Source of the DNA: Bacteroidota bacterium
Lineage (GTDB): Bacteria > Bacteroidota > Bacteroidia > UKL13-3
Reading direction: 5' to 3'
DNA: 64,000 nt
Assembly: GCA_051715425.1 (NCBI GenBank)
Contig: JBPXJS010000041.1
Location: forward strand, 336,360-400,359
The translations under genes and the position numbers were made by a program. A model generated the notes under the pieces. That model was not told the DNA's origin and ran no database searches. It worked only from the letters and a program-made list of their open reading frames with translations. Within the stretch, counting starts at the first letter, position 1; each line of letters starts with the position of its first letter. Of the stretch, positions 7,729 to 36,745 are shown one piece after another.

Positions 7729-7735
7729 TCCAATA

Positions 7736-8758: not shown

Positions 8759-8760
8759 GA

Positions 8761-18035: not shown

Positions 18036-19238
18036 ATGAGCGAATTAAAAAGATGTAAAAAATGTCTCCTTCCTGAGACTCACGAAACGATCATTTTTGA
18101 TGATGACGGAATCTGCAGTGTTTGCAGACAAAATGAATTTAAAAAAGAAAAAATCGACTGGACTTCTAAAAAAGGAGAACTTGATGAACTTATTGCACAG
18201 TATAAAGGAACCGGTGACTACGACTGTATCGTTCCGTTTAGCGGTGGTAAGGACAGTACCTGGACCTTGTATTATCTGATGAAAGAATACAAACTAAAGC
18301 CACTTGTGGTGAGGTTTGACCATGGTTTTCTTCGTCCCAACCTGAATGAAAACACCATTAAGGTATTGAGAAACCTTGGGGCCGATTTCCATTCTTTTAC
18401 CCCAAACTGGAAAGTGGTACAAAGATTAATGTTGCAAAGTTTTCTTGAAAAAGGAGATTTTTGCTGGCATTGTCATACCGGTATTTATTCTTACCCTATG
18501 TGGGTAGCTATCCGATACAATATTCCTTTAATTTTCTGGGGCGAACCATCTTCAGAGTATACTTCATACTATAGTTATGATCAATCTGAAGAGGTTGATG
18601 AAAAAAGATTCAACAGGTATATAAACCTTGGTATTAATGCCCTGGATATGGCTGTAAGAATTGGCGGTGATATAGATGAGCGTGATTTTAAACCATACTC
18701 TTATCCTCCATTAAAGGAGCTGAGAAGAATTGGTTACAGATCAGTTTGTCTTGGTTCCTATATTCCATGGGATGTAAGAACACAATCTGAAATAATAAAC
18801 AAAGAACTTGGCTGGCAGGGCGACCGTGTTGAAAATGTACCGGCTGAATACAGCTATGAGAAAATTGAGTGCTATATGCAGGGTGTGCGCGATTATATCA
18901 AATACATTAAACGAGGATATACCAGACCAACTCACCTTGCTTCAATAGATATCCGCAATGACCGGATGGAGAGAAGCAAAGGCCTGGATCTGATCAATCA
19001 GTTTGAAGGTAAAAAACCACCAAGTTTGGAAATATTCCTTGAGTTGGTTGGTTTAACAGAAGATGAATTTTTTGAGATCGCGAAAAGTCATACCGTTTCT
19101 CCGTGGAAGCTTAATGTATTTGAGCAGGAAATAGGAGAAAAATTACCTGACTTCAGCAAATGGTCGAGAGAAGGACGTGCGCAAAGGGATAAGGCGATGG
19201 AACAAATCGAACATTGGAAAAAATCTTCCGGCTTATAA
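18036..19238 (+). CDS. N-acetyl sugar amidotransferase (PP-loop ATP pyrophosphatase; WbuX/WbpG/LegX-like).
   Basis: N-terminal Cys-rich CKKCLLPET...CSVC motif. PP-loop IVPFSGGKDST. Followed directly by HisH/HisF paralogs. Confidence 0.75.
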   Translation: MSELKRCKKCLLPETHETIIFDDDGICSVCRQNEFKKEKIDWTSKKGELDELIAQYKGTGDYDCIVPFSGGKDSTWTLYYLMKEYKLKPLVVRFDHGFLRPNLNENTIKVLRNLGADFHSFTPNWKVVQRLMLQSFLEKGDFCWHCHTGIYSYPMWVAIRYNIPLIFWGEPSSEYTSYYSYDQSEEVDEKRFNRYINLGINALDMAVRIGGDIDERDFKPYSYPPLKELRRIGYRSVCLGSYIPWDVRTQSEIINKELGWQGDRVENVPAEYSYEKIECYMQGVRDYIKYIKRGYTRPTHLASIDIRNDRMERSKGLDLINQFEGKKPPSLEIFLELVGLTEDEFFEIAKSHTVSPWKLNVFEQEIGEKLPDFSKWSREGRAQRDKAMEQIEHWKKSSGL

Positions 19239-19241
19239 AAT

Positions 19242-19859
19242 ATGATTGGTATCGTAGATTACGGAATGGGTAATCTTTTATCCGTGTACAGCGCATTCGA
19301 TTACCTCGGAGAGGATGTAAAAATATGTCATCATCCGGAGGAACTTCTATCAGTTGATAAGATTGTGATTCCGGGTGTTGGCGCATTTAAAGATTGTATT
19401 GAAAAACTAAACTCCAGTGGTTTTACAGAAGCATTACATGAAAACACAATAACCAAGGCAAAACCTACTATGGGCATTTGTCTCGGGATGCAGGTGATGG
19501 CCAAATCGAGTCTTGAGGGGGGGGAGTATGAAGGTCTTGGATGGTTTGATGCCAGCGTCATTCGCCTCCATCCGGGTGATAAGGATAAAAAGGTACCCAA
19601 TATCGGATGGAATGATATCACTTATAACTCTTCTGTACCTCTGTTTAAGGGGTTACCCCAAAAACCGGATTTTTATCTTGTACATTCTTATTATATGAAA
19701 TGCAACAATCCCGGTCTGGTGGTTGCTTCATATGAATACGGGCATCAGGTAACGGCTGCCGTATTAAAAGATAATATCTTTGCAACACAGTTTCATCCGG
19801 AAAAAAGCCAGGATTACGGATTAAGAATATTAGAAAATTTTATTGACTGGAACCCCTGA
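19242..19859 (+). CDS. HisH-like class I glutamine amidotransferase subunit (WbuY-like).
   Basis: MIGIVDYGMGNLLSV, IVIPGVGAF, GICLGMQ (catalytic Cys) and FHPEKS. Contains a G8 homopolymer at 19517-19524. Confidence 0.85.
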   Translation: MIGIVDYGMGNLLSVYSAFDYLGEDVKICHHPEELLSVDKIVIPGVGAFKDCIEKLNSSGFTEALHENTITKAKPTMGICLGMQVMAKSSLEGGEYEGLGWFDASVIRLHPGDKDKKVPNIGWNDITYNSSVPLFKGLPQKPDFYLVHSYYMKCNNPGLVVASYEYGHQVTAAVLKDNIFATQFHPEKSQDYGLRILENFIDWNP

Positions 19860-19861
19860 TC

Positions 19862-20647
19862 ATGTCAAAAGCCAGATTAATTCCTAAACTTCAGCTTCGC
19901 AGAAGCTCTCAGAATCCATCAAGAATGGTACTGGTGATTACAAAGCAATTTGATACCCCAATTGAAATTGCTGATCCTGTATCGCAAGCCAAAATTTTTC
20001 AGGCACAGGCTGCTGATGAATTAATCTTTATCAATATAGATAAGGAACAAAAGGATATCAATAAATTGGCTGAAATCATTCATAAAGTTTCTGAAGAAAT
20101 ATTTATGCCCATTACAGTGGGCGGAGGAGTTAGCACTGAAGAACATTTCAGGATTCTGCTTGCCAATGGTGCTGATAAAATATCTATTAATACCATTGCA
20201 GTAGAAGATCCTTCTTTCATTACCCGCACCTCAGAAAAATTTGGTGCTCAGTGCGTGGTAGTGAGTATTGACTACCGACAGGAAGCAGATGGAACTTATT
20301 CTGTTTATACAATGGGCGGACAGAAACAAACGAATTTGCATCCTGTTGAATGGGCCATGGAAGCCGAAAGGCTTGGTGCAGGCGAAATTTTATTGTCAAG
20401 CATCGATCATGATGGAATGAGAAACGGGCTAAACCTTGAAGTAACACGAATGGTGGCCGATAAACTTTCCATCCCATTAATCACCTCAGGTGGTTGCGGA
20501 CTTGCACAACATTTTTCCGAAGGATTTCTTAAAGGCAGAGCTGATGCAGTTGCTGCGGGTAACTTCTTTGCTCACAGAGACCAGAATCTGATGCAAACCC
20601 GATCACAAATAAAAAACGCAGGAATTAACATCCGGGTGCATACCTGA
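19862..20647 (+). CDS. HisF-like cyclase/synthase subunit (WbuZ-like).
   Basis: TVGGGVST, ISINT, VVVSIDYR and EILLSSIDHDGM are TIM-barrel HisF motifs. Confidence 0.85.
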   Translation: MSKARLIPKLQLRRSSQNPSRMVLVITKQFDTPIEIADPVSQAKIFQAQAADELIFINIDKEQKDINKLAEIIHKVSEEIFMPITVGGGVSTEEHFRILLANGADKISINTIAVEDPSFITRTSEKFGAQCVVVSIDYRQEADGTYSVYTMGGQKQTNLHPVEWAMEAERLGAGEILLSSIDHDGMRNGLNLEVTRMVADKLSIPLITSGGCGLAQHFSEGFLKGRADAVAAGNFFAHRDQNLMQTRSQIKNAGINIRVHT

Positions 20648-23324: not shown

Positions 23325-24383
23325 ATGAACAACACATTTGATATTGGTAAATTTAAGGTAGGCGATGGTCAGCCTGTATTTATTATTGCCGAGCTTTCCT
23401 GTAATCACCAGCAGGATTTTGAACTGGCAAGAAAATCCGTTCTGGCTATGAAAGAATGTGGCGTTGATGCCGTGAAGCTTCAAACAGCCAAACCGTCATC
23501 CATTACCATAAAAGCAGATACTGAGTATTTTAAAATAAAGGGAGGTACCTTATGGGACAATAAAACCCTTTACGATCTTTATTCTGAAGTGTATACCCCA
23601 TGGGAATGGCATAAACCCCTTCAGGAGTTGAGTGAAAGTCTGGGTATGACATTCTTCTCTTCTCCCTTTGATCATGAAGCTGTTGATTTTTTAGAACAAC
23701 ATCAGGTTCCTGCATACAAAATTGCATCCTTTGAAATTACGGATATCCCACTTATTAAATATACAGCCGGTAAGGGCAAACCGATTATTATTTCTACCGG
23801 CATTGCAAATGAAGAAGATATAAAAGATGCCGTTGAAGCCTGTCATTCTGTTGGAAACTATCAGATAGCCTTATTAAAATGTACTTCGGCCTACCCAACT
23901 CCACTTGAGGAAGTAAATCTGAATGTAATACCCGAATTGAAAAGAAAATTTAATACAATTATTGGACTTTCAGATCATACACTTGGTAGTCTGGTTCCAA
24001 CCGGGGCCGTAGCACTTGGAGCACGCATTATAGAGAAACATTTTATTTTAGACAGAAAGCTGGGTGGGCCAGATGCCGCCTTTTCTATGGAACCACATGA
24101 ATTTAAGGCGATGATTGATACCGTAAGGGATCTTGAAAAAGCAATGGGCAAAAGTGAAATTATCATTTCCGAAAAAGTTGAAAAAAACAGACAATTTGCA
24201 CGCTCGCTTTTCATCGTAGAAGATGTAAAAAAGGGCGACTTGCTTACACCTGAAAACGTGAGATCAATACGACCAGGATATGGCATAAGACCTAAACATC
24301 TTGAAAATATACTTGGAAAAAGAGTAACCAGAGATATAGAAAAAGGAACCCCATTGGATTTTAATATGATTGACGCATCATGA
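23325..24383 (+). CDS. pseI: Pseudaminic acid synthase PseI (NeuB family, copy 3).
   Basis: Close full-length resemblance to characterised PseI: FIIAELSCNH, VKLQT, FSSPFD, AYKIASFE, LLKCTSAYPTP, GLSDHTLG and a C-terminal SAF domain. Confidence 0.9.
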   Translation: MNNTFDIGKFKVGDGQPVFIIAELSCNHQQDFELARKSVLAMKECGVDAVKLQTAKPSSITIKADTEYFKIKGGTLWDNKTLYDLYSEVYTPWEWHKPLQELSESLGMTFFSSPFDHEAVDFLEQHQVPAYKIASFEITDIPLIKYTAGKGKPIIISTGIANEEDIKDAVEACHSVGNYQIALLKCTSAYPTPLEEVNLNVIPELKRKFNTIIGLSDHTLGSLVPTGAVALGARIIEKHFILDRKLGGPDAAFSMEPHEFKAMIDTVRDLEKAMGKSEIIISEKVEKNRQFARSLFIVEDVKKGDLLTPENVRSIRPGYGIRPKHLENILGKRVTRDIEKGTPLDFNMIDAS

Positions 24384-25093
24384 TGAAAGAACTCTTCCGC
24401 AACAAAAAAATAATGATGGTGGTGGCTCATCCTGACGATGAACTGCTTGGACCAGGAGCTACCATGAACAGGCTAATCAGTGAATTGGGCGTTAAGGCCC
24501 ATGTAGTTATACTTGGGGAAGGCATCACCTCACGCTCAGATACCCGAGATCCCGCACTTTGGGAAAAGGAGCTTGCTATACACCGCAACAATATCATGTC
24601 GGCCCAAAAGGCCATTGGATATCAAAGCGTACAAATTTATGATTTGCCCGATAACAGATTTGACAGTGTAGCATTGCTTGACATTATTAAAGTAGTGGAA
24701 AAGGAAAAAAAAGCCTTTAACCCGGATATTATTTTTACCCACCATGGCGGAGATGTGAATATTGATCATCAAAGAACTTTTGAAGCAGTGATAACTGCCT
24801 GCCGTCCGATGGAACATGAACAAGTTAAAACCATTATCACTTTTGAAACCCCATCCGGTACGGAGTGGAGAGCATCAACAGATCCAAGACACTTTATACC
24901 AAATCTGTATATGGGGGTAACAAAAGAAAACGTAGAGGCCAAAATAAAAGGGATGGAAAGTTATGAATTTGAAAAACGACCTTTCCCTCATCCACGCTCA
25001 CCTGAAGCACTAATGATTCAGGCCCAGAGATGGGGTGTAGCAGCCGGACTGCATTACGCTGAAGCATTCTGTATTGTAAGAAGTATATCCTAA
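24380..25093 (+). CDS. LmbE-like (PIG-L family) N-acetyl-sugar deacetylase.
   Basis: MMVVAHPDDELLGPGATM and IFTHHGGDVNIDHQ are PIG-L/LmbE zinc-site motifs. Confidence 0.75.
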   Translation: MMKELFRNKKIMMVVAHPDDELLGPGATMNRLISELGVKAHVVILGEGITSRSDTRDPALWEKELAIHRNNIMSAQKAIGYQSVQIYDLPDNRFDSVALLDIIKVVEKEKKAFNPDIIFTHHGGDVNIDHQRTFEAVITACRPMEHEQVKTIITFETPSGTEWRASTDPRHFIPNLYMGVTKENVEAKIKGMESYEFEKRPFPHPRSPEALMIQAQRWGVAAGLHYAEAFCIVRSIS

Positions 25094-25103
25094 TTCTAAA
25101 CCC

Positions 25104-25631
25104 ATGAATACAAAAGAATTAAACAAACCCATTTATCTCGAAATTCTTACTGATGCAAATTTTTCTAAGAATTACGTGAACTGGATGAATGATTATGAAA
25201 TCACAAAATACCTGGAAAGCAGGTGGAGAGGTCAAACCATTGACAGTATTAAAGAATACCTCAAATACATGAATGAGAGCCCAAACAATTTTATGTTCGG
25301 CATTTTCCTGTCATCAAACAACCAACATATTGGCAATATTAAAATAGGTAGTATTGACTGGATACACAGAAACGGTGATGTAGGCCTGTTGATTGGCGAA
25401 CGATCCACCTGGGGTAAGGGTTATGCTACTGAAGCCATCAAACAAATTACCCATATAGCTTTCAAAAATCTAAACCTGAACAAACTGCTTGCAGGTATTT
25501 ATGTTGGCAATGAAGGTTCTTACAAAGCATTTATAAAAGCAGGATGGGAGGATGTAGGTCTTCTCAAAAAACATCGCTTCTCTGAGGGGAAATTTGTTGA
25601 CGAATACCTGGTTGAGGTTATTACCAATTAA
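25104..25631 (+). CDS. GNAT-family N-acetyltransferase (RimL-like). Candidate PseH.
   Basis: 175 aa. Acetyl-CoA-binding region ERSTWGKGYATEAIKQI. Located inside the pse gene block. Confidence 0.55.
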   Translation: MNTKELNKPIYLEILTDANFSKNYVNWMNDYEITKYLESRWRGQTIDSIKEYLKYMNESPNNFMFGIFLSSNNQHIGNIKIGSIDWIHRNGDVGLLIGERSTWGKGYATEAIKQITHIAFKNLNLNKLLAGIYVGNEGSYKAFIKAGWEDVGLLKKHRFSEGKFVDEYLVEVITN

Positions 25632-25644: not shown

Positions 25645-26676
25645 ATGATCATTGCAAAACCAGATAATATCTTTTTCTTCACCGGCCCTGCGGTATGGAT
25701 ACCCGAAGCCATCAACTATGCATCTGCCAATGGTATTCAGTGCTATGTTTTTGCCGTTACAAGGCATCTGGAGGAAATTGTAGACAGGGAAAACAATATT
25801 ACTTTTAAAGATGTATTGGAAAAGAATCAGATAGCTTATTTCCATTGTGATGATATCAATACGTCTGCCGATTTTAAAAGACTTGCTACTAAAAACAGCA
25901 TTGGTATAGGCTTAGGGGAAGCGTATACTTTTACAACAGAAACGCTTGCACTGGTTGACCGGAAAATCTTTGATATGATGATTATCCGTATGCCAAAATA
26001 CAGAGGCGGTGCTCATTTTACCTGGCAAATTCTGCAACAAAACAGAATTGGAGCATGGTACCTTCAACTGGTTAATGAAGAAATGATTCCAGGTGGTTAC
26101 GATCACGCTGAAATTATAAAAACACACGAATATATTTTGCCTCAATGGGCTCGCACACCAGCCGACTATTTTAAAGTAGCTGATGTAGAAGGACTCAATC
26201 TTTTTAAGGGGTTTCTTAATGATATTGCATCAGGAAAAGATTTTCATCTGACATGGTTACAGGAGAATTTTTCATTATACCTGCCACGCCTGTATACGTT
26301 AAAACATGCCTTTATTGACTGGAGTTGGAGCGGAGAAGAAATAGAACGTTTTATATGTGCCTTTGATGATCCTTATGTTGGCGCCAGCACCTTTTGCAAT
26401 GGTACCAGGGTATTGATAAAAAAAGCCCAGTTTGAACGTGGAGAGGGGGCTTTCCATCCGTTTATTAATGGTATCATTTACCGTATTTTTAACGGAAAAA
26501 TATTTGTGGCAGTAAATAACGGAAGCATCATTATAGAAACAATTCAAACGGAAAGCGGAGAATCATACCTTCCGGAACTGAAACCAGGATACCGGTTATT
26601 TACTCCGCAGAGCAAAATAGAAGAGGCCATGATGTTTAATGCCGAATTTGATTCAAAAGGAATAAAAAATAAGTAA
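25645..26676 (+). CDS. Formyltransferase-domain protein (long form with a C-terminal extension).
   Basis: MIIRMPKYRGGAHFTWQILQ. The C-terminal region is paralogous to that of 4847-5860 (W...ER.ICAFD.PY.GA....N). Start set at MIIAKPD after the upstream stop (the track ORF starts at 25594). Confidence 0.6.
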   Translation: MIIAKPDNIFFFTGPAVWIPEAINYASANGIQCYVFAVTRHLEEIVDRENNITFKDVLEKNQIAYFHCDDINTSADFKRLATKNSIGIGLGEAYTFTTETLALVDRKIFDMMIIRMPKYRGGAHFTWQILQQNRIGAWYLQLVNEEMIPGGYDHAEIIKTHEYILPQWARTPADYFKVADVEGLNLFKGFLNDIASGKDFHLTWLQENFSLYLPRLYTLKHAFIDWSWSGEEIERFICAFDDPYVGASTFCNGTRVLIKKAQFERGEGAFHPFINGIIYRIFNGKIFVAVNNGSIIIETIQTESGESYLPELKPGYRLFTPQSKIEEAMMFNAEFDSKGIKNK

Positions 26677-27962
26677 TGATATTTGACAGACAAAACAGTT
26701 GTAACAGAATGATGCGTTTTATAGAGGAAGTTTATCCTTTGCAGCGCATGATTAATTCTGAAGGACTTGACAGTGCTTTTGAGATCGTAAAACGAGAAAT
26801 TCCGGAAACCATTATACATGAATACCCTGCCGGAATGGAATGTGGAGACTGGATAGTACCTAAAGGATGGAAAGTAAAAGAAGCTTACCTGAAAAACAAA
26901 GCAGGTGATATTATTGCAGATTTTGCAGAACATCCGCTTTTTGTTGCCGCATACAGTGAACCGGTGAGCGGTTGGTTCACAAAATCTGAAATAGCCCGCC
27001 ATGTGCGTTGCCACCCAACCAAACCGGGAGCTTATTTTTTGGAGCATCGCAATGCCTACAATTATAAATTAACAGACTGGGGCATTACGCTTCCTAAAAA
27101 CACATGGGATAACCTGCCCGATGCAGAGTACCATGTTCATATTGATATAGAATGGAGCAACCGGAGTATGAAGGTTGCAGAAGTATTTGTTCAGGGTCAG
27201 TCAGATAAAATCATTTCTATTAGTGCGCATATTGACGAAATATGTAATGACAACCTGAGCGGATGCGCTGCCGGAATGGAAATGATCCGCTATATTCAGC
27301 AATTACCTTCTCCTAAATATTCCTATCAGTTGCTTTTGATACCGGAAACGATAGGTACCTTTTTTTATGTTTTTAATAACCTGCAGAGGGTAAAGAAAAC
27401 AATAGGCATGTATAACCTTGAAACTGTTGGCTCAGGTGAAAGTTGGGTATTAAAAAAAGCCCTTACACCAAACAGTTTAATTGAACAGGCTCTCCATTCA
27501 GCGCTTGTTAACACCGGTTTCCCTTATAAACATATTGATTTTTTTGAAGGATATGGGAATGATGAACGTGTGTACGAATGGCCTACGCTTAAAATTCCGG
27601 GTGTAGCACTTCAGCGTTATCCTTTTTACGAATACCATTCCGGAGATGATACCCCGGAGAATATTGATCAGGAGCATTTGTTTAATGCTGTTCAAATCTC
27701 GTGTAACCTCGTAGATGTTTTAGAAACCGATTATATTCCTGAATATACTCAGGTTATTCCACCATGGCTTACACGACACGATCTGTATTATGACAGCAGG
27801 GATAATACAGCCAACTTTCATAAGTTCAACAATCTCCTACTTTTTAATATTGATGGAACCAAATCCCTTTCGGAACTTTGCGGGATAGCCGGTATAAGAT
27901 TTACCGAGGCCTATGAATATCTGGAAAAATTTGTTGCCAAAGGTTTTATTATAAAAAAATAA
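26676..27962 (+). CDS. DUF4910 / aminopeptidase-like (M28 fold) protein with a C-terminal winged helix. Resembles the Campylobacter Cj1295 family implicated in non-acetyl acylation of pseudaminic acid.
   Basis: 428 aa. HIDIEWSN, SAHIDEICNDNLSGCAAGME and YEYHSGDDTPE are M28-like metal-site segments. Confidence 0.5.
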   Translation: MIFDRQNSCNRMMRFIEEVYPLQRMINSEGLDSAFEIVKREIPETIIHEYPAGMECGDWIVPKGWKVKEAYLKNKAGDIIADFAEHPLFVAAYSEPVSGWFTKSEIARHVRCHPTKPGAYFLEHRNAYNYKLTDWGITLPKNTWDNLPDAEYHVHIDIEWSNRSMKVAEVFVQGQSDKIISISAHIDEICNDNLSGCAAGMEMIRYIQQLPSPKYSYQLLLIPETIGTFFYVFNNLQRVKKTIGMYNLETVGSGESWVLKKALTPNSLIEQALHSALVNTGFPYKHIDFFEGYGNDERVYEWPTLKIPGVALQRYPFYEYHSGDDTPENIDQEHLFNAVQISCNLVDVLETDYIPEYTQVIPPWLTRHDLYYDSRDNTANFHKFNNLLLFNIDGTKSLSELCGIAGIRFTEAYEYLEKFVAKGFIIKK

Positions 27963-27975: not shown

Positions 27976-29436
27976 ATGCTTTTTAACTCATTCGAGTTTC
28001 TGCTCTTCTTTCCTCTTGTTACCCTGATTTACTTTTTGATCCCGCATCGTTTCAGGTGGTTTCATCTGTTGCTTGCGAGTTGTGTTTTTTATGCGGCCTT
28101 TATTCCGGCCTATATCCTTATTCTGTTTTTTACCATCATCATAGACTATGTGGCTGGTATCCTCATTGAAAAAACGGAAGGCCCAAAACGAAAATGGTAT
28201 CTTACCATGAGCATCATTGCCAATGTGGGTGTTCTTGCCATATTCAAATATTACAACTTCTTTATAGGGAACATCAACGATTTGTTGTTGCTTATTGGTA
28301 TTCATAGTAATCCACTCCCCTATCTTGGTATTATTCTGCCCATTGGTCTTTCCTTTCATACATTTCAGGCGATGAGTTATACCATTGAAGTGTATCGTAA
28401 AAATCAGCCGGCAGAAAAACATTTTGGCATTTATTCTCTTTATGTAATGTTCTATCCACAACTTGTTGCCGGACCTATTGAGAGGCCACAGAATGTGATT
28501 CATCAGTTCCACGAGGAGAAAAAATTCGATTACAGCCTTGCGGTCAAGGGAATGCGACTTATGCTTATCGGGATGTTTAAAAAAGTGGTTATTGCCGACA
28601 GGCTTGCCCTGTTTACCAGTCCTGTATTTAACGACCCCGACCAGTATTCTTCCGTTGTACTTTTTATTGGTGCTGTATTTTTTGCCTTTCAGATTTTCTG
28701 TGATTTTTCCGGGTACTCTGATATTGCTTTGGGATCAGCTCAGGTAATGGGAATAACCCTCATGAAAAACTTTGATAAGCCGTATCATTCTCAATCCATA
28801 TCAGAATTCTGGAGCCGCTGGCATATTTCTCTTAGCACATGGTTCAGGGATTATTTATATATTACTCTCGGTGGAAACAGGGTGTCGGTTCCAAGATGGT
28901 ACTTTAACCTGTTTTTTGTTTTTCTGGTTAGCGGTTTCTGGCACGGTGCCAACTGGACTTTTATCATATGGGGTATGTTACACGGATTCTACCTGATATT
29001 TGCATTAGCAACCTCCGGATTTAGAAAGTCGCTGGCTGCTGCAGTAAAACTGGATAAATTGCCCCGCATTCAATCCGTTTTAAATATACTTATCACATTT
29101 GTACTTGTAACCCTGGCCTGGATCTTTTTCAGGGCCAATACCGTAAAAGAAGCAATGTTCATCATCACTTCTGTGCTCCATATTCCGCTTGATATTTTAT
29201 CAGGATCTGCTAACCTGTTAAGCAAATTTCCTGTTACTGCCAATACCTTTCTCATCTCAGTAGCCATGATTATTCTCCTTGAAACATATCACACCTTACA
29301 TTCTAATGCAAAAATGATATCCCTGTTTTCAAAACCTAAATCTTACTTACGTTGGTCAGCATATTACATGCTTATAATAGGTTTGGTTTTTTTAGGAGTA
29401 TGGGGAGAACAACAATTTATTTATTTCCAGTTTTAA
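27976..29436 (+). CDS. MBOAT-family membrane-bound O-acyltransferase (AlgI/DltB-like).
   Basis: 486 aa, multi-TM. Conserved region FWSRWHISLSTWFRDYLYI with the catalytic His. Confidence 0.85.
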   Translation: MLFNSFEFLLFFPLVTLIYFLIPHRFRWFHLLLASCVFYAAFIPAYILILFFTIIIDYVAGILIEKTEGPKRKWYLTMSIIANVGVLAIFKYYNFFIGNINDLLLLIGIHSNPLPYLGIILPIGLSFHTFQAMSYTIEVYRKNQPAEKHFGIYSLYVMFYPQLVAGPIERPQNVIHQFHEEKKFDYSLAVKGMRLMLIGMFKKVVIADRLALFTSPVFNDPDQYSSVVLFIGAVFFAFQIFCDFSGYSDIALGSAQVMGITLMKNFDKPYHSQSISEFWSRWHISLSTWFRDYLYITLGGNRVSVPRWYFNLFFVFLVSGFWHGANWTFIIWGMLHGFYLIFALATSGFRKSLAAAVKLDKLPRIQSVLNILITFVLVTLAWIFFRANTVKEAMFIITSVLHIPLDILSGSANLLSKFPVTANTFLISVAMIILLETYHTLHSNAKMISLFSKPKSYLRWSAYYMLIIGLVFLGVWGEQQFIYFQF

Positions 29437-29437
29437 T

Positions 29438-30565
29438 ATGATTCGGTTTTTCAAGCGACTTTTCCTTTTTTCGGTTCCAATTATTGTTTTTTTCAGCGTT
29501 CCTCTGTTTGTTCTTTTTCCCTCAGGTGAACTTACCTCCAATACCACCATGCTTGAGGAGCATATAGAGAACAAACAATCCCTTATCGGCTTGGCATATA
29601 GTAATCCGGTAACTTTTCTTAAACTTCATGCGGCAAAACAGAAAACACCTGAAATTCTTGCTTTGGGTACCTCGAGAATAATGCAGGTACGAGACTTTTT
29701 CTTTAAAAATTCTTCATCATTCTACAATGCAGGTGGAGGAATTTTCAGAATAAATTACCTGCGCTATTTTACTTCAGAAGTAATTAAGTCAGCGAAACCA
29801 CGTATGATCATCGTTTGCCTTGATCAGAATTTTTTTAACCCTAACTGGGATAACCTGAGCAAAACGAAATTTGACGATGAATACAAGGATGAATACAACG
29901 CGTTGTCTTATATTTTTAATAATGCAACCACCTGCTGGCATGATGCTTTTGAGGGAAAAGTTCCTGCGGATTATTGTTTAAATCTAAAACCCGGACAAAT
30001 TGGTTTAACTGCCGCAGTAAAGAAAAATGGGTTCCGGAGTGACGGAAGTTATTATTCAGGACAGATAAAAAGTCATCCGGAAGAAGATCAGGATTATCAG
30101 TTCAAAAACACCCTTGATAGAATTGCTAAAGCAACCAAACGATTCGAATATGCCCAACAAATTAACAGCAGAGCAGTAAATGAGCTGGACTCTTTCCTTA
30201 CTTTTTGCAAAGTCAACAATATTCATGTAGTAAGTTTTCTCCCTCCTTATGCAAATAAAATATTATCAGTTATGCGTTCAAAAGGTAACGACTATGCGTA
30301 TCTGGATAAGATCATGCCCGCTTTAAAACCGGTATTTGAAAAACACAGGTTAAACGTATTTGATTTTACAGATCTTTCCACCATTCAGGCAGGAGATGAA
30401 GAAGTGCTTGACGGATTCCACGGATCTGAAAAAATATACCTGAGGATGATGATTCAAATGGCGAATAAAGATAGTATACTGGCAAAATCTTGTGATGTAC
30501 CTGCACTTCAGCATTTGCTCAACCAATCCTATTCCCACCAATTTATACATAACGAAACTTACTAA
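29438..30565 (+). CDS. Putative MBOAT partner protein (AlgJ/DltD-like, N-terminal signal anchor, SGNH-like).
   Basis: Starts immediately after the MBOAT gene. N-terminal TM helix. ALGTSRIMQ motif. The call is by position and architecture only. Confidence 0.35.
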   Translation: MIRFFKRLFLFSVPIIVFFSVPLFVLFPSGELTSNTTMLEEHIENKQSLIGLAYSNPVTFLKLHAAKQKTPEILALGTSRIMQVRDFFFKNSSSFYNAGGGIFRINYLRYFTSEVIKSAKPRMIIVCLDQNFFNPNWDNLSKTKFDDEYKDEYNALSYIFNNATTCWHDAFEGKVPADYCLNLKPGQIGLTAAVKKNGFRSDGSYYSGQIKSHPEEDQDYQFKNTLDRIAKATKRFEYAQQINSRAVNELDSFLTFCKVNNIHVVSFLPPYANKILSVMRSKGNDYAYLDKIMPALKPVFEKHRLNVFDFTDLSTIQAGDEEVLDGFHGSEKIYLRMMIQMANKDSILAKSCDVPALQHLLNQSYSHQFIHNETY

Positions 30566-30567
30566 CT

Positions 30568-32157
30568 GTGAACGCCCTTTTCCTGAAATTCGCAAAAGAC
30601 CCAAGCAAAAGAATTGTAAAACGTATTATAGAAGATTTACATATCAATCATGTGCATGTTATTTCTACAAGCACGGGGCATTTTAGTGAATCTGAACAAA
30701 AAACATTTACAAAGGGTACCAAATTTACCCAACTCTCTGCAGAGGAGCATTATTTTGGTGTTTATGAACATGTAAACTGGAATGAACTGGAGCCAGTTGA
30801 CAAAAGCCTGCTTGATAAGTTTGAAAAACATTACTTCAACCTGTTTGCCGTTTTTGATAAAGACTATCTGCCTTACAATTTTGAAGACCAATACTCTTAT
30901 CCTAAACATATTATTGAGCCTATACTTAAACATCAGTTTAATAAGTATGCGGTAAACAGGATATACAGCTATGATCATTTTGACAAGATCAGAATGATGC
31001 ACCGACATATCAGATTCTGGTATAACTATATCAAACGTGAAAAGATTGAAGCTGCCTTTTTTACCCTATGCCCGCACTTTCCTTTTGAGTATATTATTTA
31101 CGCGCTTTGTAAGGAAATGAATATTCCTACGGCCATGTCGTATTTTTCCAGCCCTCCAGGTTACTCACTGGTATTTAAAGATATTGATGATCCTTATGCA
31201 TATACTCATAAGAAATTTCTTGAACTATCCGCAGATGTAAACCTTCAAACTTCTATTAAACTAAATGATGACTTTGAGGCTGAATGGAATGCAAAAACCA
31301 GAGATATGGAAAAGCCCTGGTATTTTGATACAAAACTAATGGCAAAATTCGATCAGGAGGGTAGATTTAAACATGAAGAAAATTCAAGGGTAAATGAGTG
31401 GAAGAGGCAACGTCCAATTTCTTTTAAAGAGAAAATTTGGAGTAAAGTGAAACGCAGATTTGATATAGATTATATCTATTTCAAAATGAAATTTGGAAAA
31501 GTTCCATACTGGAAAAAGTTATACAATTATTATCAGTCTATAACTGAAACACCAGACTTTAATAAGCCCTACATCTATCTGCCGCTTGCCTACCAGCCTG
31601 AATTATCAACCATGCCGCTGGGAGGTTACTATTTCTATCAAACTACCCTGATTGATATGATTTCCCATTATTTACCGGAAGGTTGGTTTATTTATGTAAA
31701 GGAGCATATTATGCCAAGCAAGAGAATGAGGAGCGTTCAATTCTATCAGGATTTGAAAAACAATCCGAAGGTAAAACTCATCAGCAAGGATGTAGATTCC
31801 ATGAAACTTGCCGAACACGCAAAGGCTGTCGCCACCATTACAGGAACACCAGGCTGGGAAGGACTTTTCCGGGGCAAACCATGTCTGCTCTTCGGACATA
31901 TCTTTTACGAATACGCCCCGGGAGTTTTCAGAATCAGAACAAATGAAGATTGCCGGATGGCTATCAAGAAAATCGAAGAAGGCTTTACTACATCAACTGA
32001 TGACTTAATGATATTTATGAAAGCATTACAACTAACCAATATCAGAGCCGCTATGGAGCATGCCACACTCGATTTTAAAGGATACGATCTGGATGAAAAT
32101 GCTGAGATTTTCGGTAAAGAATATGTTCGGGTAATTAAAGAGCAATTAAAATCATAA
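30568..32157 (+). CDS. Capsule_synth-family (KpsS/KpsC-like, GT107-type) glycosyltransferase candidate.
   Basis: YIYLPLAYQPELSTMPLGG ... FIYVKEHIMPS resembles the KpsS core LQVYNDSQ ... YLVIKHHPMD. Confidence 0.45.
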   Translation: MNALFLKFAKDPSKRIVKRIIEDLHINHVHVISTSTGHFSESEQKTFTKGTKFTQLSAEEHYFGVYEHVNWNELEPVDKSLLDKFEKHYFNLFAVFDKDYLPYNFEDQYSYPKHIIEPILKHQFNKYAVNRIYSYDHFDKIRMMHRHIRFWYNYIKREKIEAAFFTLCPHFPFEYIIYALCKEMNIPTAMSYFSSPPGYSLVFKDIDDPYAYTHKKFLELSADVNLQTSIKLNDDFEAEWNAKTRDMEKPWYFDTKLMAKFDQEGRFKHEENSRVNEWKRQRPISFKEKIWSKVKRRFDIDYIYFKMKFGKVPYWKKLYNYYQSITETPDFNKPYIYLPLAYQPELSTMPLGGYYFYQTTLIDMISHYLPEGWFIYVKEHIMPSKRMRSVQFYQDLKNNPKVKLISKDVDSMKLAEHAKAVATITGTPGWEGLFRGKPCLLFGHIFYEYAPGVFRIRTNEDCRMAIKKIEEGFTTSTDDLMIFMKALQLTNIRAAMEHATLDFKGYDLDENAEIFGKEYVRVIKEQLKS

Positions 32158-32161
32158 GAGG

Positions 32162-33355
32162 ATGAAAAAATATAGTGATATATCCGTTGGCGACTCAGCC
32201 GAAATAAAGCACACCATAACCGATCATGATATACGCAAGTTTGTTGACCTGACAGGTGATGACAACAAACTTCATATTGATTCCGGTTTTGCAGCCAACA
32301 CCTCATTTAAAAAGCCTGTTGCACACGGTATGCTGGGTGCCTCTTTCATCTCCACTATTATAGGCACAAAATTACCTGGCGATGGTGCATTATGGTTTTC
32401 GCAAAGTTTAGAATTTTTGATGCCTGTAAGGGTTGGCGATACATTAACCATTACTGCAGAAGTAACAGGGAAAAATGACAGAAATAACAGTATAGAGTTA
32501 AGAACCGATATATATAATCAGAACAAACAAAAAGTAACCTCCGGCACCGCTAAGGTAAAAATAGTAGAACAGGAACTGCCTTCTGAAAAAAATCAGGAAG
32601 AATTAAGCTCAGGCATTAAAAACATACTTATAATTGGCGCATCCGGAGGCATCGGACAAGCCATCAGTAAAAAACTTAGTCAGGAGGGTTATAACCTGAT
32701 TCTCCACTATAACAACAACCCGGGCAAGGTGGAACAAATTGCAGCTACAAAAGTTAACGACAATCAAAAAATTGCCTGTGTTAAGGCTGATTTAAGTATA
32801 GACAGCGAGCTTGACGGGTTAATCTCCAAAGCAGAAAGAACACTTGGTTCTGTTGATGGTATCATTAATGCGGCAACTGTAAATGTTTCAAACATTAAAT
32901 TTGAGAAAACAGACTGGAACGACCTGAACAGGCATCTTCAGATAAACATTAAAGCCAATTACGAATTGTTGAAAAGGCTGGTTCCTTCTATGAAACAGCG
33001 GAAACAAGGGAAGATCATTTTTATAACCACCCAATATACAGAGAGCACTCCTCCTGCAGAGCTTATTCATTATGTAACAGCAAAATCCGCCCTAAATGGT
33101 TTTGCCAAATCTATGGCTGTAGAGCTGGGTCCTCACAATATCCAGGTTAATCTTGTTTCTCCGGGTATGACTGAAACTGAACTGATTGCTGATGTTCCTG
33201 AAAAAGCCAGACTCGTAGCCGCAGGTAAAACCCCGCTGCGAAGACTTGCTACTCCTCTGGATATAGCAAATGTGGTATCCTTTTTATTTTCCGAAAACAG
33301 CAATTATATAACAGGTGAAACCATTCGTGTGAATGGCGGACAAACCATGATATAA
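32162..33355 (+). CDS. Fusion of a MaoC-like (hot-dog fold) dehydratase and a short-chain dehydrogenase/reductase (FabG-like).
   Basis: N-terminus FVDLTGDDNKLHID and VAHGML (MaoC). C-terminus ILIIGASGGIGQAI and YVTAKSALNG (SDR Y-x3-K). Confidence 0.75.
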   Translation: MKKYSDISVGDSAEIKHTITDHDIRKFVDLTGDDNKLHIDSGFAANTSFKKPVAHGMLGASFISTIIGTKLPGDGALWFSQSLEFLMPVRVGDTLTITAEVTGKNDRNNSIELRTDIYNQNKQKVTSGTAKVKIVEQELPSEKNQEELSSGIKNILIIGASGGIGQAISKKLSQEGYNLILHYNNNPGKVEQIAATKVNDNQKIACVKADLSIDSELDGLISKAERTLGSVDGIINAATVNVSNIKFEKTDWNDLNRHLQINIKANYELLKRLVPSMKQRKQGKIIFITTQYTESTPPAELIHYVTAKSALNGFAKSMAVELGPHNIQVNLVSPGMTETELIADVPEKARLVAAGKTPLRRLATPLDIANVVSFLFSENSNYITGETIRVNGGQTMI

Positions 33356-35109
33356 TGGAATTGATAAAATACACAGACCTCTTAAAAGAAAACAAAATCC
33401 TGAAAGACAAACTTGCAGGAAAACCTCAGGTAAAAATTCACCTGTTGAATAATGTTACAGTGAATATCCTGAAAAATGTACTTGAATACAGGTTACGTTT
33501 GTCCGGCAACAATGTTGAAATGGTGATGCATGATTATGACACCATTATCCCGGACAGTATGCAACTTCAGGATGAGAATACTCCCAGAATCATATTTTGG
33601 GATATTTGCAATTATTTACCCGGTATTTATTACAAAAGCAATCTGTGGTCAAATAAGGAACTCGATGACTTTATCTCTAAAGTAAGAAATGATATTGATT
33701 TGGTGTTTCAATCTCTTTCCAAAGCAAGCATTGCATTTGTTAATACCTTTAGTGCATCGCCCTTTGCCCTGCATGCAGTAAAACAGACACCATTGCAGGT
33801 GGCCGCTGAGGTATTGAATAAATACCTCATTGACAGAAAACCGGAAAATGTTCATCTGGTTGATATGTCGGTCATTTATCAGGAAATATCTGTGAGCATA
33901 GCGACAGATCTGAGAATGTTTAATAACAGCAAAACGTTACACAGTTATCCGTTTTTCTATGCGTATGTTAACCGCATCATGCCCGTGCTGTCATCAGTAA
34001 CCGGGAAAGCCAAAAAGGCATTGATATTTGATTGTGATAATTCCTTATGGCACGGGATTATCGGTGAAGACGGGAAAGAAGGAATTAAAATGTCTGCAGA
34101 AGACAGCAAAGGCATTTTTTTTCATCAGGTTCAACGTATTGCTGTGGAGTTAAGTAAACAAGGAATCATTATTGGCTTAAACAGTAAAAACAACCCGGAA
34201 GATGTGGAGGATATCCTTCAATCGCATCCGGATATGTTCTTAAGAGATGAGCATATTGTAATAAAAAAAGTAAACTGGATCGATAAAGCATCAAATCTTA
34301 AGCAGATAGCCAAAGACCTGAATATTGGTATTGACAGTCTTGTTTTTATAGATGATTCTGATTTTGAAATCAATTTAGTAAGAGAACAACTGCCCGAGGT
34401 TTCCACATTTCAGGTTCCCAAGGCCCTGCATGATTACCCAAAGATGATGAAAGAAATTTCCAACCTCTTTTATAATCACTCACAAACAGGTGAAGATCTG
34501 GAAAGGGTGAACATGTATAAACAAGAACAGGCACGGGAACAACAAAAAGAAACATTCGGTAATATTGATGAGTACCTTCATTCACTTGGCATAAAAATAA
34601 AAATATATAAAGACGATGTATCATTGGTTGCCAGAACCGCACAAATGACACAAAAGACCAATCAGTTTAATCTCACCACCAAACGATACACTGAAAACGA
34701 TATTCAGCATTTTATCACATCTGCATCACATCATGTGTATGTATTTGAGGTTAGTGATAAATTTGGGTCGTATGGAATAACCGGCATGTGCATTACAAAT
34801 GCTGAAAACAATAACGTTTTGATTGATTCCTTTTTGATGAGCTGCCGGGTATTGGGAAGAAAAATAGAATCAAGTTTTCTTTCATACATCATTGATGATT
34901 TGGTAAAAGAAGGAGTTAAGTCTATGCTCTCCTCATATATCAAAACTGCAAAAAATGCTCAGGTTGAAATGTTTTTTGAAAACAATGGGTTCAGCCTCAC
35001 TGAATCATCAGAGGGTGCTAAGAACTATACCCTCAACACAATAGATTGGAAAAACCACACTCCTGATTTTATCACTATTGAAAACGCTGATAACATTAAA
35101 ACTGCATAA
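33355..35109 (+). CDS. FkbH-like HAD-superfamily subfamily IIIC phosphatase/acyltransferase with a C-terminal GNAT-like domain.
   Basis: KALIFDCDNSLWHGIIGEDG is the hallmark FkbH/HAD-IIIC motif I. Further HAD motifs VFIDDS and GLNSKNN. The C-terminal ~150 aa is GNAT-like. Confidence 0.75.
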   Translation: MELIKYTDLLKENKILKDKLAGKPQVKIHLLNNVTVNILKNVLEYRLRLSGNNVEMVMHDYDTIIPDSMQLQDENTPRIIFWDICNYLPGIYYKSNLWSNKELDDFISKVRNDIDLVFQSLSKASIAFVNTFSASPFALHAVKQTPLQVAAEVLNKYLIDRKPENVHLVDMSVIYQEISVSIATDLRMFNNSKTLHSYPFFYAYVNRIMPVLSSVTGKAKKALIFDCDNSLWHGIIGEDGKEGIKMSAEDSKGIFFHQVQRIAVELSKQGIIIGLNSKNNPEDVEDILQSHPDMFLRDEHIVIKKVNWIDKASNLKQIAKDLNIGIDSLVFIDDSDFEINLVREQLPEVSTFQVPKALHDYPKMMKEISNLFYNHSQTGEDLERVNMYKQEQAREQQKETFGNIDEYLHSLGIKIKIYKDDVSLVARTAQMTQKTNQFNLTTKRYTENDIQHFITSASHHVYVFEVSDKFGSYGITGMCITNAENNNVLIDSFLMSCRVLGRKIESSFLSYIIDDLVKEGVKSMLSSYIKTAKNAQVEMFFENNGFSLTESSEGAKNYTLNTIDWKNHTPDFITIENADNIKTA

Positions 35110-35111
35110 AA

Positions 35112-36741: not shown

Positions 36742-36745
36742 GTTT

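Follow-up and report, generated by a model that had tools for sequence, protein, structure and literature searches.

The window analysed here, a stretch of 64,000 nucleotides from a Bacteroidota bacterium, carries a pseudaminic acid (Pse) locus in which family searches identified PseB, PseC, PseG, PseI (480.8 bits), a PIG-L/LmbE deacetylase, a GNAT, an FkbH protein and an ACP-like ORF. The original prediction had placed our target gene in just this company (pseI, LmbE, a GNAT and an FkbH/ACP cassette), and every one of these genes was found. The target ORF begins with an ATG and encodes a protein of 428 residues, and the strand opposite is full of stop codons (Table 1). No poly-G tract was seen in the gene and no signal peptide-like N-terminus in its product. 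FkbH and ACP lie 5–9 kb downstream on the same strand, within one uninterrupted gene array. A homologue of the PF02522 AAC(3)-like N-acyltransferases was found nowhere in the window.

Table 1 Features of the target gene and its surroundings, in window coordinates
Feature	Coordinates	Strand	Basis
WbuX-type N-acetyl-sugar amidotransferase, HisH-like and HisF-like genes (acetamidino-forming set)	18036..20647	+	WbuX 342.9 bits; GATase, His_biosynth
PIG-L/LmbE deacetylase (local context, not a conserved partner)	24380..25093	+	Pfam PIG-L 1.7e-20
Small GNAT (Acetyltransf_3, distant PseH-like; third member of the conserved block)	25104..25631	+	Pfam; NCBIfam
Fmt-like partner gene, 343 aa	25645..26676	+	Formyl_trans_C only; AF2/Foldseek; motif conservation
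Target gene, DUF4910/DUF2172/M28-fold protein, 428 aa, 'HIDE' branch (branch B)	26676..27962	+	ORF, Pfam, 3K9T, AF2
DUF2172 insert domain within the M28-like core, residues 65-157	26868..27146	+	Pfam PF09940
M28-like catalytic core with conserved site	27192..27704	+	Peptidase_M28 match, 2EK8 alignment, 115-sequence conservation
Codon H185	27228	+	
Codon D187	27234	+	
Codon E188	27237	+	
Codon D192	27249	+	
Codons P223-E224	27342-27347	+	
Codon E249	27420	+	
Codon E297	27564	+	
Codons Y320-H321	27633-27638	+	
C-terminal three-helix and strand domain, winged-helix-like, HTH_47 equivalent	27807..27956	+	AF2 secondary structure, 3K9T alignment
Window-specific downstream block: DltB-like MBOAT, unknown 375 aa, Capsule_synth-like, MaoC+SDR, FkbH, NulO-transferase-like, ACP, hexapeptide acyltransferase	27976..37309	+	Family searches
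FkbH	33355-35109	+	280 bits (cut-off 146.65)
NulO-transferase-like gene, between FkbH and ACP	35112-36524	+	
ACP	36514-36741	+	

The target protein matches Pfam DUF4910 (1.5e-44, 152.1 bits; cut-off 26.6), DUF2172 (1.2e-18, 67.6 bits; cut-off 27) and, over residues 173–343, Peptidase_M28 (4e-8, 33.7 bits; cut-off 21.3), while an NCBIfam search assigned it to no family. Its only solved relative is CA_C2195 of Clostridium acetobutylicum (PDB 3K9T), detected at 2e-44 by sequence and at 5.8e-68 by profile over approximately residues 5–417; this protein carries Pfam DUF4910, DUF2172 and HTH_47, and its structure and genomic context were analysed by Das et al. 2014 (PMC4000134). The AF2 model of the target (pLDDT 95.4, pTM 0.92) retrieved 3K9T first in Foldseek (E = 1.3e-40, TM 0.85, 432 columns), with true M28 aminopeptidases next in the ranking, and its DUF2172 domain is the counterpart of the α+β insert described in 3K9T (PMC4000134). 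Profile scan and structure prediction thus agree on the DUF4910, aminopeptidase-like core that had been proposed, and support assignment of the target to the DUF4910/DUF2172/wHTH family (CA_C2195-like; PIRSF015244) with an M28-like fold, encoded within a pseudaminic acid locus.

The M28 co-catalytic zinc aminopeptidases 2EK8, BSAP (6HC6) and PaAP (8ACK) share the core fold of the target (TM 0.5–0.6, E ~1e-15). In a column-by-column profile alignment the five metal ligands of 2EK8 match H185, D192, E224, E249 and H321 of the target, and the aspartate of the HxD motif matches D187. All five ligand positions and the HxD aspartate are therefore kept in the alignment, which describes a putative metal site and goes further than the 'probable metal ligands' noted originally. 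Among 115 homologues D187, D192, E224, E249 and H321 are invariant, and at position 185 the residue is His in 102 sequences and Gln in the remaining 13 (11%). Strict conservation extends to the polar residues around the site (H124, D187, E188, N247, E249, N295 and Q313), and C190, K260 and D325 are further conserved residues of the core. However, the general-base Glu of the M28 'EE' motif is replaced by a proline, P223, which is invariant among the homologues; the same replacement occurs in all DUF4910 branches. The target thus has the ligand set of a competent M28 peptidase and lacks the pairing of HxD Asp with general-base Glu. M28-fold proteins without this Glu are usually not hydrolases (PMC4000134). 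That E188 or E297 could act as a substitute base is conjecture. The target differs from the aminopeptidases also in a shorter loop between the HxD motif and the bridging Asp, in the added DUF2172 insert and C-terminal wHTH, and in its sugar-related gene context.

Directly upstream, between the GNAT and the target, lies a gene that was missing from the original prediction, and its stop codon overlaps the ATG of the target (TAATG). Formyl_trans_C is the sole Pfam domain detected in its product, whose AF2 model (pLDDT 93.6) displays a complete two-domain Fmt/ArnA fold with a Foldseek TM of ~0.7 to Fmt/ArnA. When it is aligned by profile with Fmt (3TQQ) and ArnA, the protein has Asp110 in the place of the catalytic Asn and Met112 in that of the catalytic His, with the Asp of the triad kept, and this Asp110/Met112 motif is invariant both in 24 homologues and in a set of 77 sequences. 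The invariance of the two substitutions excludes the protein as a canonical formyl-THF transferase, and on the same grounds we rejected it as the canonical enzyme that might formylate a freed amine. Across most related loci the DUF4910 and Fmt-like genes overlap or are separated by no more than ~25 nt, in both gene orders, and two Fmt-like genes that were picked independently were each directly followed by a DUF4910 gene. The small GNAT finds its best NCBIfam match in PseH, at 39.7 bits and hence under the 93.1 cut-off. A plain PseH was considered for this gene; such an assignment would leave the module with no named 're-acylase'. In one locus (L012) the Fmt-like protein and the GNAT form a single fusion protein, and in two others (L032 and L033) a second GNAT stands beside NeuB in addition to that of the module.

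The target had been described as Cj1295-like. The sequence of Cj1295, which we reconstructed by scanning poly-G tract lengths, is 27.9% identical to the target, and 3K9T is 28.6% identical to it, whereas Cj1295 and 3K9T share 42%. These two proteins belong to a branch, A, that is distinct from the branch of the target, B: identity between A and B averages 27.7% and reaches at most 32.1%, compared with a minimum of 38.4% within A. Branch A has no counterparts of D187 and E249 and shows a single-Zn site motif, Y-x-C-H-P-S-(M/L)-C-N-D, with Thr/Ser at the second-metal position, which is not found in the target; the target reads A-H-I-D-E-I-C-N-D and N-L-E-T-V-G, and its E188 is an extra, invariant residue relative to 3K9T. 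Identity, site motifs and the lack of an adjacent PF02522 gene all place the target outside branch A. The likeness to Cj1295 consequently holds at the level of the Pfam family, and the subtype differs (CHPSM/VxxCxG in Cj1295, HIDE/NLETVG in the target).

Within this division CA_C2195 and Cj1295 still share features with the target. CA_C2195 has the same three-domain architecture and fold, lies in a nonulosonic-acid locus and shares the C-N-D, P-E, D-E-R, Y-H and D325 motifs, the last three of which are common to all DUF4910 branches; it has likewise lost the general-base Glu. In contrast to the target it binds one Zn, has Ser for the HxD Asp and Thr for the second-metal carboxylate, and is accompanied by FkbH, ACP and PF02522 proteins rather than by Fmt-like, GNAT and WbuX/HisH/HisF proteins. 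Cj1295 of Campylobacter jejuni NCTC 11168 belongs to the same Pfam and PIRSF family, adjoins pseB/pseC-type genes and, as is plausible for the target, is implicated in non-acetyl N-acylation of Pse. The published link to a glyceroyl-type modification that the original prediction cited exists: formation of Pse5(di-O-methylglyceroyl)7Ac depends on Cj1295 (Hitchen et al. 2010), and the authors of that study proposed deacetylation at C5 (PMC3068675). Unlike the target, Cj1295 carries the CHPSMANNE and VLSCLG motifs, is phase-variable through its poly-G tract and is surrounded by a PF02522 N-acyltransferase, an ACP, a methyltransferase, an HAD/FkbH-like protein and FabH, with no Fmt-like gene. Papers on Shewanella, Clostridium and periodontal bacteria cite Cj1295 and contain no functional data on it, and we found no assayed member of any DUF4910 branch in the searchable literature. 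The 'glyceroyl' annotation of Cj1295 should therefore not be passed to every DUF4910 gene.

In the C-terminal region AF2 places helices at residues 378–390, 398–405 and 409–421 and a strand at 425–427, and the 3K9T alignment extends through this region, in agreement with the winged helix that had been predicted. Of the Pfam domains expected with it, DUF4910 and DUF2172 were recovered, but HTH_47 (PF16221), which matches branch A, gave no match in the target at E ≤ 1; a precomputed PF16221 match is present in 11 of the 120 branch B homologues listed.

We compared the partners of the target type across 29 loci with a window-type DUF4910 gene and seven branch A loci. The contigs were scanned with motif patterns specific to the branch of the window, so that the 29 loci represent this branch and not the whole family, and the seven branch A loci are the top matches to one query, 3K9T, a small and biased sample. 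Partners were surveyed by strict tblastn and then by phmmer with several queries per family, with the same conclusion; the stricter tblastn alone could miss short or divergent ACP and PIG-L proteins. The Fmt-like gene is present in 25 of the 29 loci, directly adjacent in most, and the GNAT and the WbuX/HisH/HisF set in 22 each, often as a contiguous run of WbuX-HisH-HisF-DUF4910-Fmt-like-GNAT; among the loci of this branch that are clearly biosynthetic, WbuX/HisH/HisF are missing from none. Aquirufa nivalisilvae (L016) is one carrier of the gene. By comparison FkbH and MBOAT occur in 0/29, ACP and PIG-L in 1/29 each and PF02522 in 2/29. None of the genes of the downstream block accompanies a branch B DUF4910 elsewhere, beyond sporadic MaoC and Hexapep matches. 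The closest relatives (L005–L007, 73–80% identity) have the order PseI-GNAT-Fmt-like-DUF4910, without PIG-L or the downstream FkbH block. PIG-L was thus rejected as an obligate partner. The branch A loci lack the Fmt-like gene altogether (25/29 against 0/7, Fisher p = 6e-5), and six of the seven have an AAC(3)-like N-acyltransferase (PF02522), usually with an ACP; natural fusions occur too. These data show that the DUF4910 family splits into a degenerate-site branch that travels with ACP and AAC(3)-like acyltransferases, and full-site branches that travel with an altered Fmt-fold protein. The constant partner of the target type is this Fmt-like protein and not the nearby FkbH and acyl-carrier genes.

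The DUF4910/Fmt-like pair of Chloroflexota has no GNAT, Pse genes or any acyltransferase beside it and lies in catabolic-looking loci among transporters, an esterase, a sulfatase and dehydrogenase/enolase enzymes. The statement that the family is known only from glycan loci was therefore too strong.

How might such a protein act? The reading we favour, at somewhat short of an even chance, is that the target is a metal-dependent N-deacylase and forms, together with the coupled Fmt-like protein, part of a module for N-acyl editing that does not depend on LmbE or FkbH/ACP. It would be a cytoplasmic, amidohydrolase-type enzyme of M28 aminopeptidase fold, working as a unit with the Fmt-like protein and, in biosynthetic loci, also with the adjacent small GNAT. 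The group edited would be an N-acyl group carried by pseudaminic acid or by one of its sugar-nucleotide precursors. The DUF4910 subunit may take off the resident N-acyl group, most plausibly the C5 N-acetyl that comes from GlcNAc and would otherwise be unchangeable, and the GNAT may then re-acylate the freed amine; the other N-acetyl could be converted to acetamidino by the co-occurring WbuX/HisH/HisF proteins. Since its fold is intact but its catalytic Asn and His are lost, the Fmt-like protein would supply substrate or cofactor binding rather than formyl transfer. The fold, the ligand set and its conservation, the gene coupling, the partner counts and the separation from Cj1295 and CA_C2195 are observations, whereas we infer that the chemistry is hydrolytic, what the substrate is, at which nitrogen it is edited and that the target and the Fmt-like protein form a physical complex; that the target helps to place a non-acetyl N-acyl group on Pse is plausible. 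The sister branch, with its fused or adjacent N-acyltransferases (PF02522 or PF13302), shows the pattern expected of a deacylase/re-acylase pair, and in the Chloroflexota loci, with neither GNAT nor Pse genes and a catabolic-looking setting, a hydrolytic role would be the only one to make sense. PIG-L/LmbE sugar de-N-acetylases such as BshB and MshB offer a parallel to this proposed role, metal-dependent removal of an N-acetyl group before re-acylation, although their fold is unrelated and it is through them that free amino sugars are conventionally made. Several observations weigh against an N-deacylase: the general base has become the invariant P223 and H185 is Gln in some homologues, the window already has a conventional PIG-L deacetylase, and the WbuX/HisH/HisF link may mean an amidine substrate or mere co-inheritance of a locus type.

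It seems rather improbable that the target is no hydrolase at all: it may be a direct transacylase whose metal site, in the manner of glutaminyl cyclase, would serve for aminolysis of an ester or amide, or an inert scaffold or substrate-presenting subunit, with the Fmt-like protein a second pseudoenzyme. The loss of the general base in every branch fits this, as does the lack of canonical catalytic residues in both proteins; Das et al. favour transacylation, and contacts with other proteins could be made through the wHTH domain (PMC4000134). In C. jejuni the neighbouring N-acetyltransferase Cj1296/7 was out of frame, yet glyceroyl-Pse was produced whenever Cj1295 was ON, which makes Cj1295 itself a possible transferase. 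Against this, the strictly kept binuclear ligand set and its polar surroundings point to real catalysis, and neither a transacylase nor a scaffold has an obvious role in the Chloroflexota loci, which carry no acyltransferase.

According to the original prediction, LmbE deacetylates and the target takes part with the FkbH/ACP cassette in an acyl exchange; in this scheme the DUF4910 protein, like Cj1295, would help to install a glyceroyl-type acyl group. We regard it as unlikely, since the partnership is not conserved: the survey counts for PIG-L, FkbH and ACP and the gene order of the closest relatives all speak against it. The proximity and co-orientation of FkbH and ACP, the NulO-transferase-like gene between them, the FkbH-like and ACP genes of the Cj1295 and CA_C2195 loci, and the glyceroyl-Pse of Tannerella forsythia, also a member of the Bacteroidota (PMC5378307), are all in its favour. 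However, the target has low identity to Cj1295 and a different active site, and the window lacks the PF02522 N-acyltransferase that goes with DUF4910 and ACP in branch A. The block moreover has candidate transferases of its own, the DltB-like MBOAT and the hexapeptide acyltransferase, and PIG-L has a candidate partner in a Formyl_trans_N gene.

An alternative substrate for the DUF4910/Fmt-like pair is the acetamidino group made by WbuX/HisH/HisF, which the pair would hydrolyse or remodel, for acyl exchange by way of an activated amidine in biosynthesis and for breakdown of scavenged acetamidino sugars in Chloroflexota. Binuclear metallohydrolases are well suited to C–N cleavage of amidino and guanidino groups, and the association with WbuX/HisH/HisF, often contiguous with the module, and the occurrence of the pair in catabolic-looking loci are as this would predict. 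We nevertheless hold it to be quite unlikely: the argument is one of association, which co-inheritance of a locus type explains equally well, and WbuX-type systems function in E. coli O145 and P. aeruginosa O5, where no DUF4910 protein is known to take part. A bolder variant, in our estimate a long shot, is that full-site DUF4910 proteins (the branch of the window together with that of L032 and L033) are obligate two-subunit enzymes with a repurposed formyltransferase-fold protein and remove N-acyl or N-acetimidoyl substituents of nonulosonic acids. This would open an 'amide to amidine to free amine' route for swapping the N-acyl group at C5 of pseudaminic acid, which is otherwise fixed, and would equip marine Chloroflexota with a deacylase for the catabolism of sialic-acid-like sugars scavenged from bacteria. 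Finally, that the target is a genuine aminopeptidase with a protein or peptide as its substrate is highly improbable, for although the M28 fold, the above-threshold Peptidase_M28 match and the identity of the structurally closest enzymes suggest one, the catalytic Glu is gone, the N-terminus is not signal peptide-like and the gene always lies among sugar-modifying genes, never beside a candidate protein substrate (loci surveyed here; PMC4000134).

The diversification of N-acyl groups on pseudaminic and legionaminic acids, which shape antigenicity, phage recognition and surface charge, is largely unsolved; for T. forsythia, for example, it is stated outright that the genes behind the Am and Gra groups of its Pse are not known (PMC5378307). 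The DUF4910 family has been represented by a crystal structure from 2009 and by a knockout phenotype from 2010. The branch split, the translationally coupled Fmt-like pair and the catabolic-looking loci sharpen the experiments that can be directed at DUF4910 activity.

As for the PIG-L gene of the window, a Formyl_trans_N-type gene at 21662 is a candidate for its more natural partner. The lone PIG-L gene among the 29 loci adjoins Formyl_trans_N (L033), and a similar PIG-L/formyltransferase pairing has been reported in the SugarBase preprint.

The original prediction placed a 428-residue protein at 26676..27962, and these boundaries are exact. The ORF starts with ATG and lies on the + strand; the antisense strand of the same interval is riddled with stop codons. 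A Pfam scan bore out the DUF4910/M28 fold proposed for this target, with matches to DUF4910 (1.5e-44), DUF2172 (1.2e-18) and Peptidase_M28 (4e-8) that all exceed the curated cut-offs; NCBIfam holds no model for the protein. The sole solved relative is CA_C2195 (3K9T), which matches over nearly the full length at 2e-44 in a sequence search and 5.8e-68 in a profile search. An AF2 model of the target, built on an alignment of 115 homologues (pLDDT 95.4, pTM 0.92), superposes on 3K9T with a TM of 0.85 over 432 columns, and is matched at lower ranks by the M28 aminopeptidases 2EK8, PaAP and BSAP and then by GCPII and the transferrin receptor. Three helices and one strand are modelled at residues 378-427, which supports on structural grounds the C-terminal winged helix that had been predicted, although the Pfam HTH_47 model (PF16221) gave no match to the target at E <= 1. 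PF16221 was scored by 11 of the 120 target homologues listed.

The description of the target as Cj1295-like held only at the level of the Pfam family. The Cj1295 sequence was taken from a C. jejuni metagenome contig located via the primer printed in Hitchen et al.; a G11 tract puts the gene in its phase-OFF state on this contig, and the reading frame was reconstructed before comparison. Reconstructed Cj1295 is 42% identical to 3K9T and 28% to the target, while the target and 3K9T share 28.6%. In a joint alignment of 115 target homologues (branch B) with 117 homologues of 3K9T plus Cj1295 (branch A), identity between the branches averaged 27.7% (maximum 32.1%), against a mean of 46.9% within branch B and a minimum of 38.4% within branch A. 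Together with active-site motifs that differ systematically, this places the target, as judged by sequence, outside the Cj1295/CA_C2195 type. Branch A is much the larger, with at least 8000 clusters against the 134 retrieved for branch B. Three C. jejuni contigs derived from metagenomes (L034, L035 at 7681-8992, and L036) carry Cj1295 with a frameshift at a G10-G11 homopolymer, which is consistent with the published phase variation, though an assembly error there is possible.

Alignment of the branch-B profile to 2EK8 showed all five M28 ligand positions to be occupied, as anticipated for the probable metal ligands: H185 is the first His ligand, D192 the bridging Asp, E224 the Glu ligand, E249 the Asp ligand (NLETVG in the target, QLDMVG in 2EK8) and H321 the last His, with D187 as the Asp of the HxD motif. 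The sole M28 loss is the general-base Glu, which is replaced by P223. Residues D187, E188, C190, D192, P223, E224, E249, K260, E297, Y320, H321 and D325 are invariant in the 115 sequences. At position 185, 102 sequences have His and 13 have Gln, and the latter may form a sub-group that acts in another way. Branch A shares the C-N-D, P-E, D-E-R and Y-H motifs and D325, but reads Y-x-C-H-P-S-M-C-N-D at the first site and carries Thr or Ser at the E249 position, in agreement with the single Zn in 3K9T. That Zn is bound by H189, D195 and H324, and the M28 catalytic Asp and Glu are lost (to Ser191 and Pro225) (Das et al., PMC4000134). By alignment, branch B thus retains a complete co-catalytic ligand set that is absent from 3K9T and Cj1295.

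The window carries one long + strand glycan locus, and the gene context originally described was accurate, with PseI, LmbE, GNAT, FkbH and ACP all present. The gene directly upstream of the target was passed over: it encodes a formyltransferase-fold (Fmt-like) protein (25645-26676), and its TAA stop overlaps the ATG of the target (TAATG).

Genes of the glycan locus in the window
Feature	Start	End	Strand	Score
PseF-like	9733		+	
Flippase-like	10425		+	
PseB	11875		+	506 bits
PseC	12863		+	467 bits
AKR, NeuB-like, cytidylyltransferase, GSA-aminomutase-like set	14088	18017	+	
WbuX amidotransferase	18036		+	
HisH	19242		+	
HisF	19862		+	
PseG	20655		+	
Short Formyl_trans_N-type protein, 209 aa	21662	22291	+	
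GNAT, 332 aa	22320		+	
PseI	23325		+	481 bits
PIG-L/LmbE	24380	25093	+	
GNAT, 175 aa	25104		+	
Fmt-like protein, 343 aa	25645		+	
Target DUF4910 gene	26676	27962	+	
DltB-like MBOAT	27976		+	
Poorly annotated ORF	29438		+	
Poorly annotated ORF	30568		+	
MaoC+SDR fusion	32162		+	
FkbH	33355		+	280 bits
Weak similarity to T. forsythia BFO_1060 NulO (nonulosonic acid)-transferase family	35112		+	
ACP	36514		+	
Hexapeptide acyltransferase	36746		+	
AsnB	37310		+	
Glycosyltransferases	from 39123		+	

A genome scan yielded 24 branch-B loci (Bacteroidota, Desulfobacterota, Chloroflexota, Alpha- and Gammaproteobacteria, Lentisphaerae and one archaeon), to which three were added via a Dehalococcoidia protein and two via the Fmt-like protein. 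These 29 target-type loci were compared with seven branch-A loci by sensitive phmmer. The Fmt-like gene was found in 25/29 target-type and 0/7 branch-A loci, and small GNAT, WbuX and HisF genes each in 22/29 (branch A 0/7, 1/7 and 0/7, respectively), whereas a PF02522 N-acyltransferase was present in 2/29 and 6/7. With near-duplicate loci collapsed, Fisher tests gave p values of 6e-5 (Fmt-like), 1.4e-4 (PF02522) and 4e-4 (ACP). In most loci the Fmt-like gene lies immediately beside the DUF4910 gene, with an overlap or a gap of at most about 25 nt, and either gene may come first; this points to selection for closeness and not to inherited synteny. WbuX-HisH-HisF-DUF4910-Fmt-like-GNAT is a recurrent gene order, and in a Desulfobacteraceae MAG (L012, 8377-9972) the Fmt-like protein and small GNAT are fused in a single 531-aa ORF. 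The cultivable Aquirufa nivalisilvae 59G-WUEMPEL (L016) also has the module. The closest relatives of the target (73-80% identity) show the order PseI-GNAT-Fmt-like-DUF4910, with no PIG-L and nothing of the block downstream of the target in the window. A third DUF4910 branch, in related loci L032 (9077-10390) and L033 (9035-10339), has the motifs NAHDCHAGQANDD, APEHLG and FLEMLG and is ~31% identical to the target and ~27% to 3K9T. The Glu of the second metal is retained (FLEMLG), and the gene sits immediately downstream of an Fmt-like gene; the pairing thus tracks full-site forms. In a further locus, L022, the DUF4910 protein (about 10001-11266) has His185 replaced by Gln ('SQFDE'), and no Fmt-like, GNAT or HisF gene lies within 10 kb. 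Branch A instead shows the order ACP-PF02522-DUF4910, accompanied by FkbH in C. acetobutylicum and by a methyltransferase, a HAD/FkbH-like protein and FabH in C. jejuni; four metagenomic or genomic loci have this order too, and the branch has natural DUF4910+PF02522 and DUF4910+GNAT fusions. No PF02522 homologue was found across the window.

In the Fmt-like protein, Formyl_trans_C is the sole Pfam score, and the AF2 model (pLDDT 93.6) has a complete two-domain Fmt/ArnA fold (TM about 0.7). Profile alignment to Fmt (3TQQ) and ArnA places the invariant D110 and M112 at the catalytic Asn and His positions and shows the catalytic Asp to be kept. These replacements rule out a canonical N10-formyl-THF transferase. 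Of the 321 clusters retrieved for this family, most carry the NCBI name 'hypothetical'.

N5 of pseudaminic acid (Pse) comes from the acetamido group of GlcNAc and can therefore be changed only after deacylation, while N7 is installed by a PseH-type enzyme. The data establish the fold, ligand retention, conservation, gene coupling and partner statistics, and we infer the chemistry, the substrate and the formation of a complex: the best-supported reading, which we hold tentatively, is that the target is a metal-dependent N-deacylase subunit. It would work with the Fmt-like protein to edit an N-acyl group of Pse, with the GNAT joining them in biosynthetic loci. The missing general base is the main objection to this reading; E188 or E297 would be conjectural replacements for it. 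On C. jejuni flagellin, Pse5(2,3-di-O-methylglyceroyl)7Ac depends on Cj1295, which was hypothesised to cleave the C5 acetamido group (Hitchen et al., PMC3068675); for CA_C2195, which has a glycan-locus context, transacylation or amidase chemistry was suggested (Das et al., PMC4000134). The background originally given on Cj1295 and glyceroyl-Pse agrees with these papers and was thus already published. The N-acetyltransferase gene Cj1296/7, beside Cj1295, is out of frame in both flagellin-mobility variants of NCTC 11168, and glyceroyl-Pse is nevertheless present whenever Cj1295 is in frame (PMC3068675, Table 1), so the adjoining acyltransferase may not be needed for the modification.

In five Chloroflexota loci (L002-L004, L014 and L015) the DUF4910/Fmt-like pair is a stand-alone two-gene unit, neighboured by lactonase-like, Zn-dehydrogenase, enolase-superfamily, esterase, MFS or ABC transporter and sulfatase genes. 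PBEM01, CAZBHC01 and JALPVQ01 are Chloroflexota carriers. This contradicts the statement that the family is known only from glycan loci. The surroundings look catabolic and may represent a cluster for modified sugar acids, a setting that only a hydrolytic (deacylating) activity fits.

The DUF4910 family is already known, as are its fold and its link to glycans, and such a gene in a Pse locus will not surprise a specialist. We found no biochemical characterisation under any family name in the openly searchable (non-subscription) literature. Four points are new relative to that literature: a separate branch keeps the full set of M28 ligands; it is paired almost obligately with a translationally coupled protein of Fmt fold whose catalytic residues are altered; it is linked to acetamidino genes; and it occurs in catabolic-looking loci. 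The subfamily split gives a clear and testable way into a family whose function has eluded assignment for fifteen years.

The original prediction had the target act with LmbE and FkbH/ACP to deacetylate and re-acylate Pse. Such a route is possible for this particular locus, but that it runs via the target gene is unlikely: the comparative data give it no support, with PIG-L in 1/29 target-type loci (branch A 0/7), FkbH in 0/29 (2/7), ACP in 1/29 (5/7) and MBOAT in 0/29 (0/7). The short Formyl_trans_N-type gene is a more natural partner for PIG-L, an arrangement also seen in L033, and FkbH and ACP adjoin their own candidate transferases. The short protein keeps the catalytic His and Asp, with Val for Asn ('LVVHESDLP'), and both L033 (beside PIG-L) and L037 have a similar gene between a PseG-like and a NeuB gene. 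The SugarBase preprint linked a deacetylase/formyltransferase pair, inferred for Ca. Kuenenia, to free-amine and N-formyl CMP-NulOs; by analogy, the short protein and PIG-L could be such a deacetylate-and-formylate pair.

The block at 27976-37309, from the MBOAT to the hexapeptide acyltransferase, is absent from all 29 related loci. It resembles the carrier-protein-dependent acylation of Dlt, with FkbH loading in place of DltA. By analogy with T. forsythia, for which the genes of Pse modification were described as unknown (PMC5378307), the entire locus may well produce an acetamidino- and glyceroyl-type Pse; this would be a property of the locus and no evidence for the role of the target gene. 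Further upstream, four genes encode an aldo/keto reductase, a NeuB-like synthase whose score falls short of the NeuB as well as the PseI cut-off, a CTP_transf_3 cytidylyltransferase and a GSA-aminomutase-like aminotransferase; they may constitute a second, uncharacterised ulosonic-acid or side-chain pathway. Four-gene sets of this type recur upstream of WbuX/HisH/HisF in many related loci, with the cytidylyltransferase and aminotransferase fused in L032.
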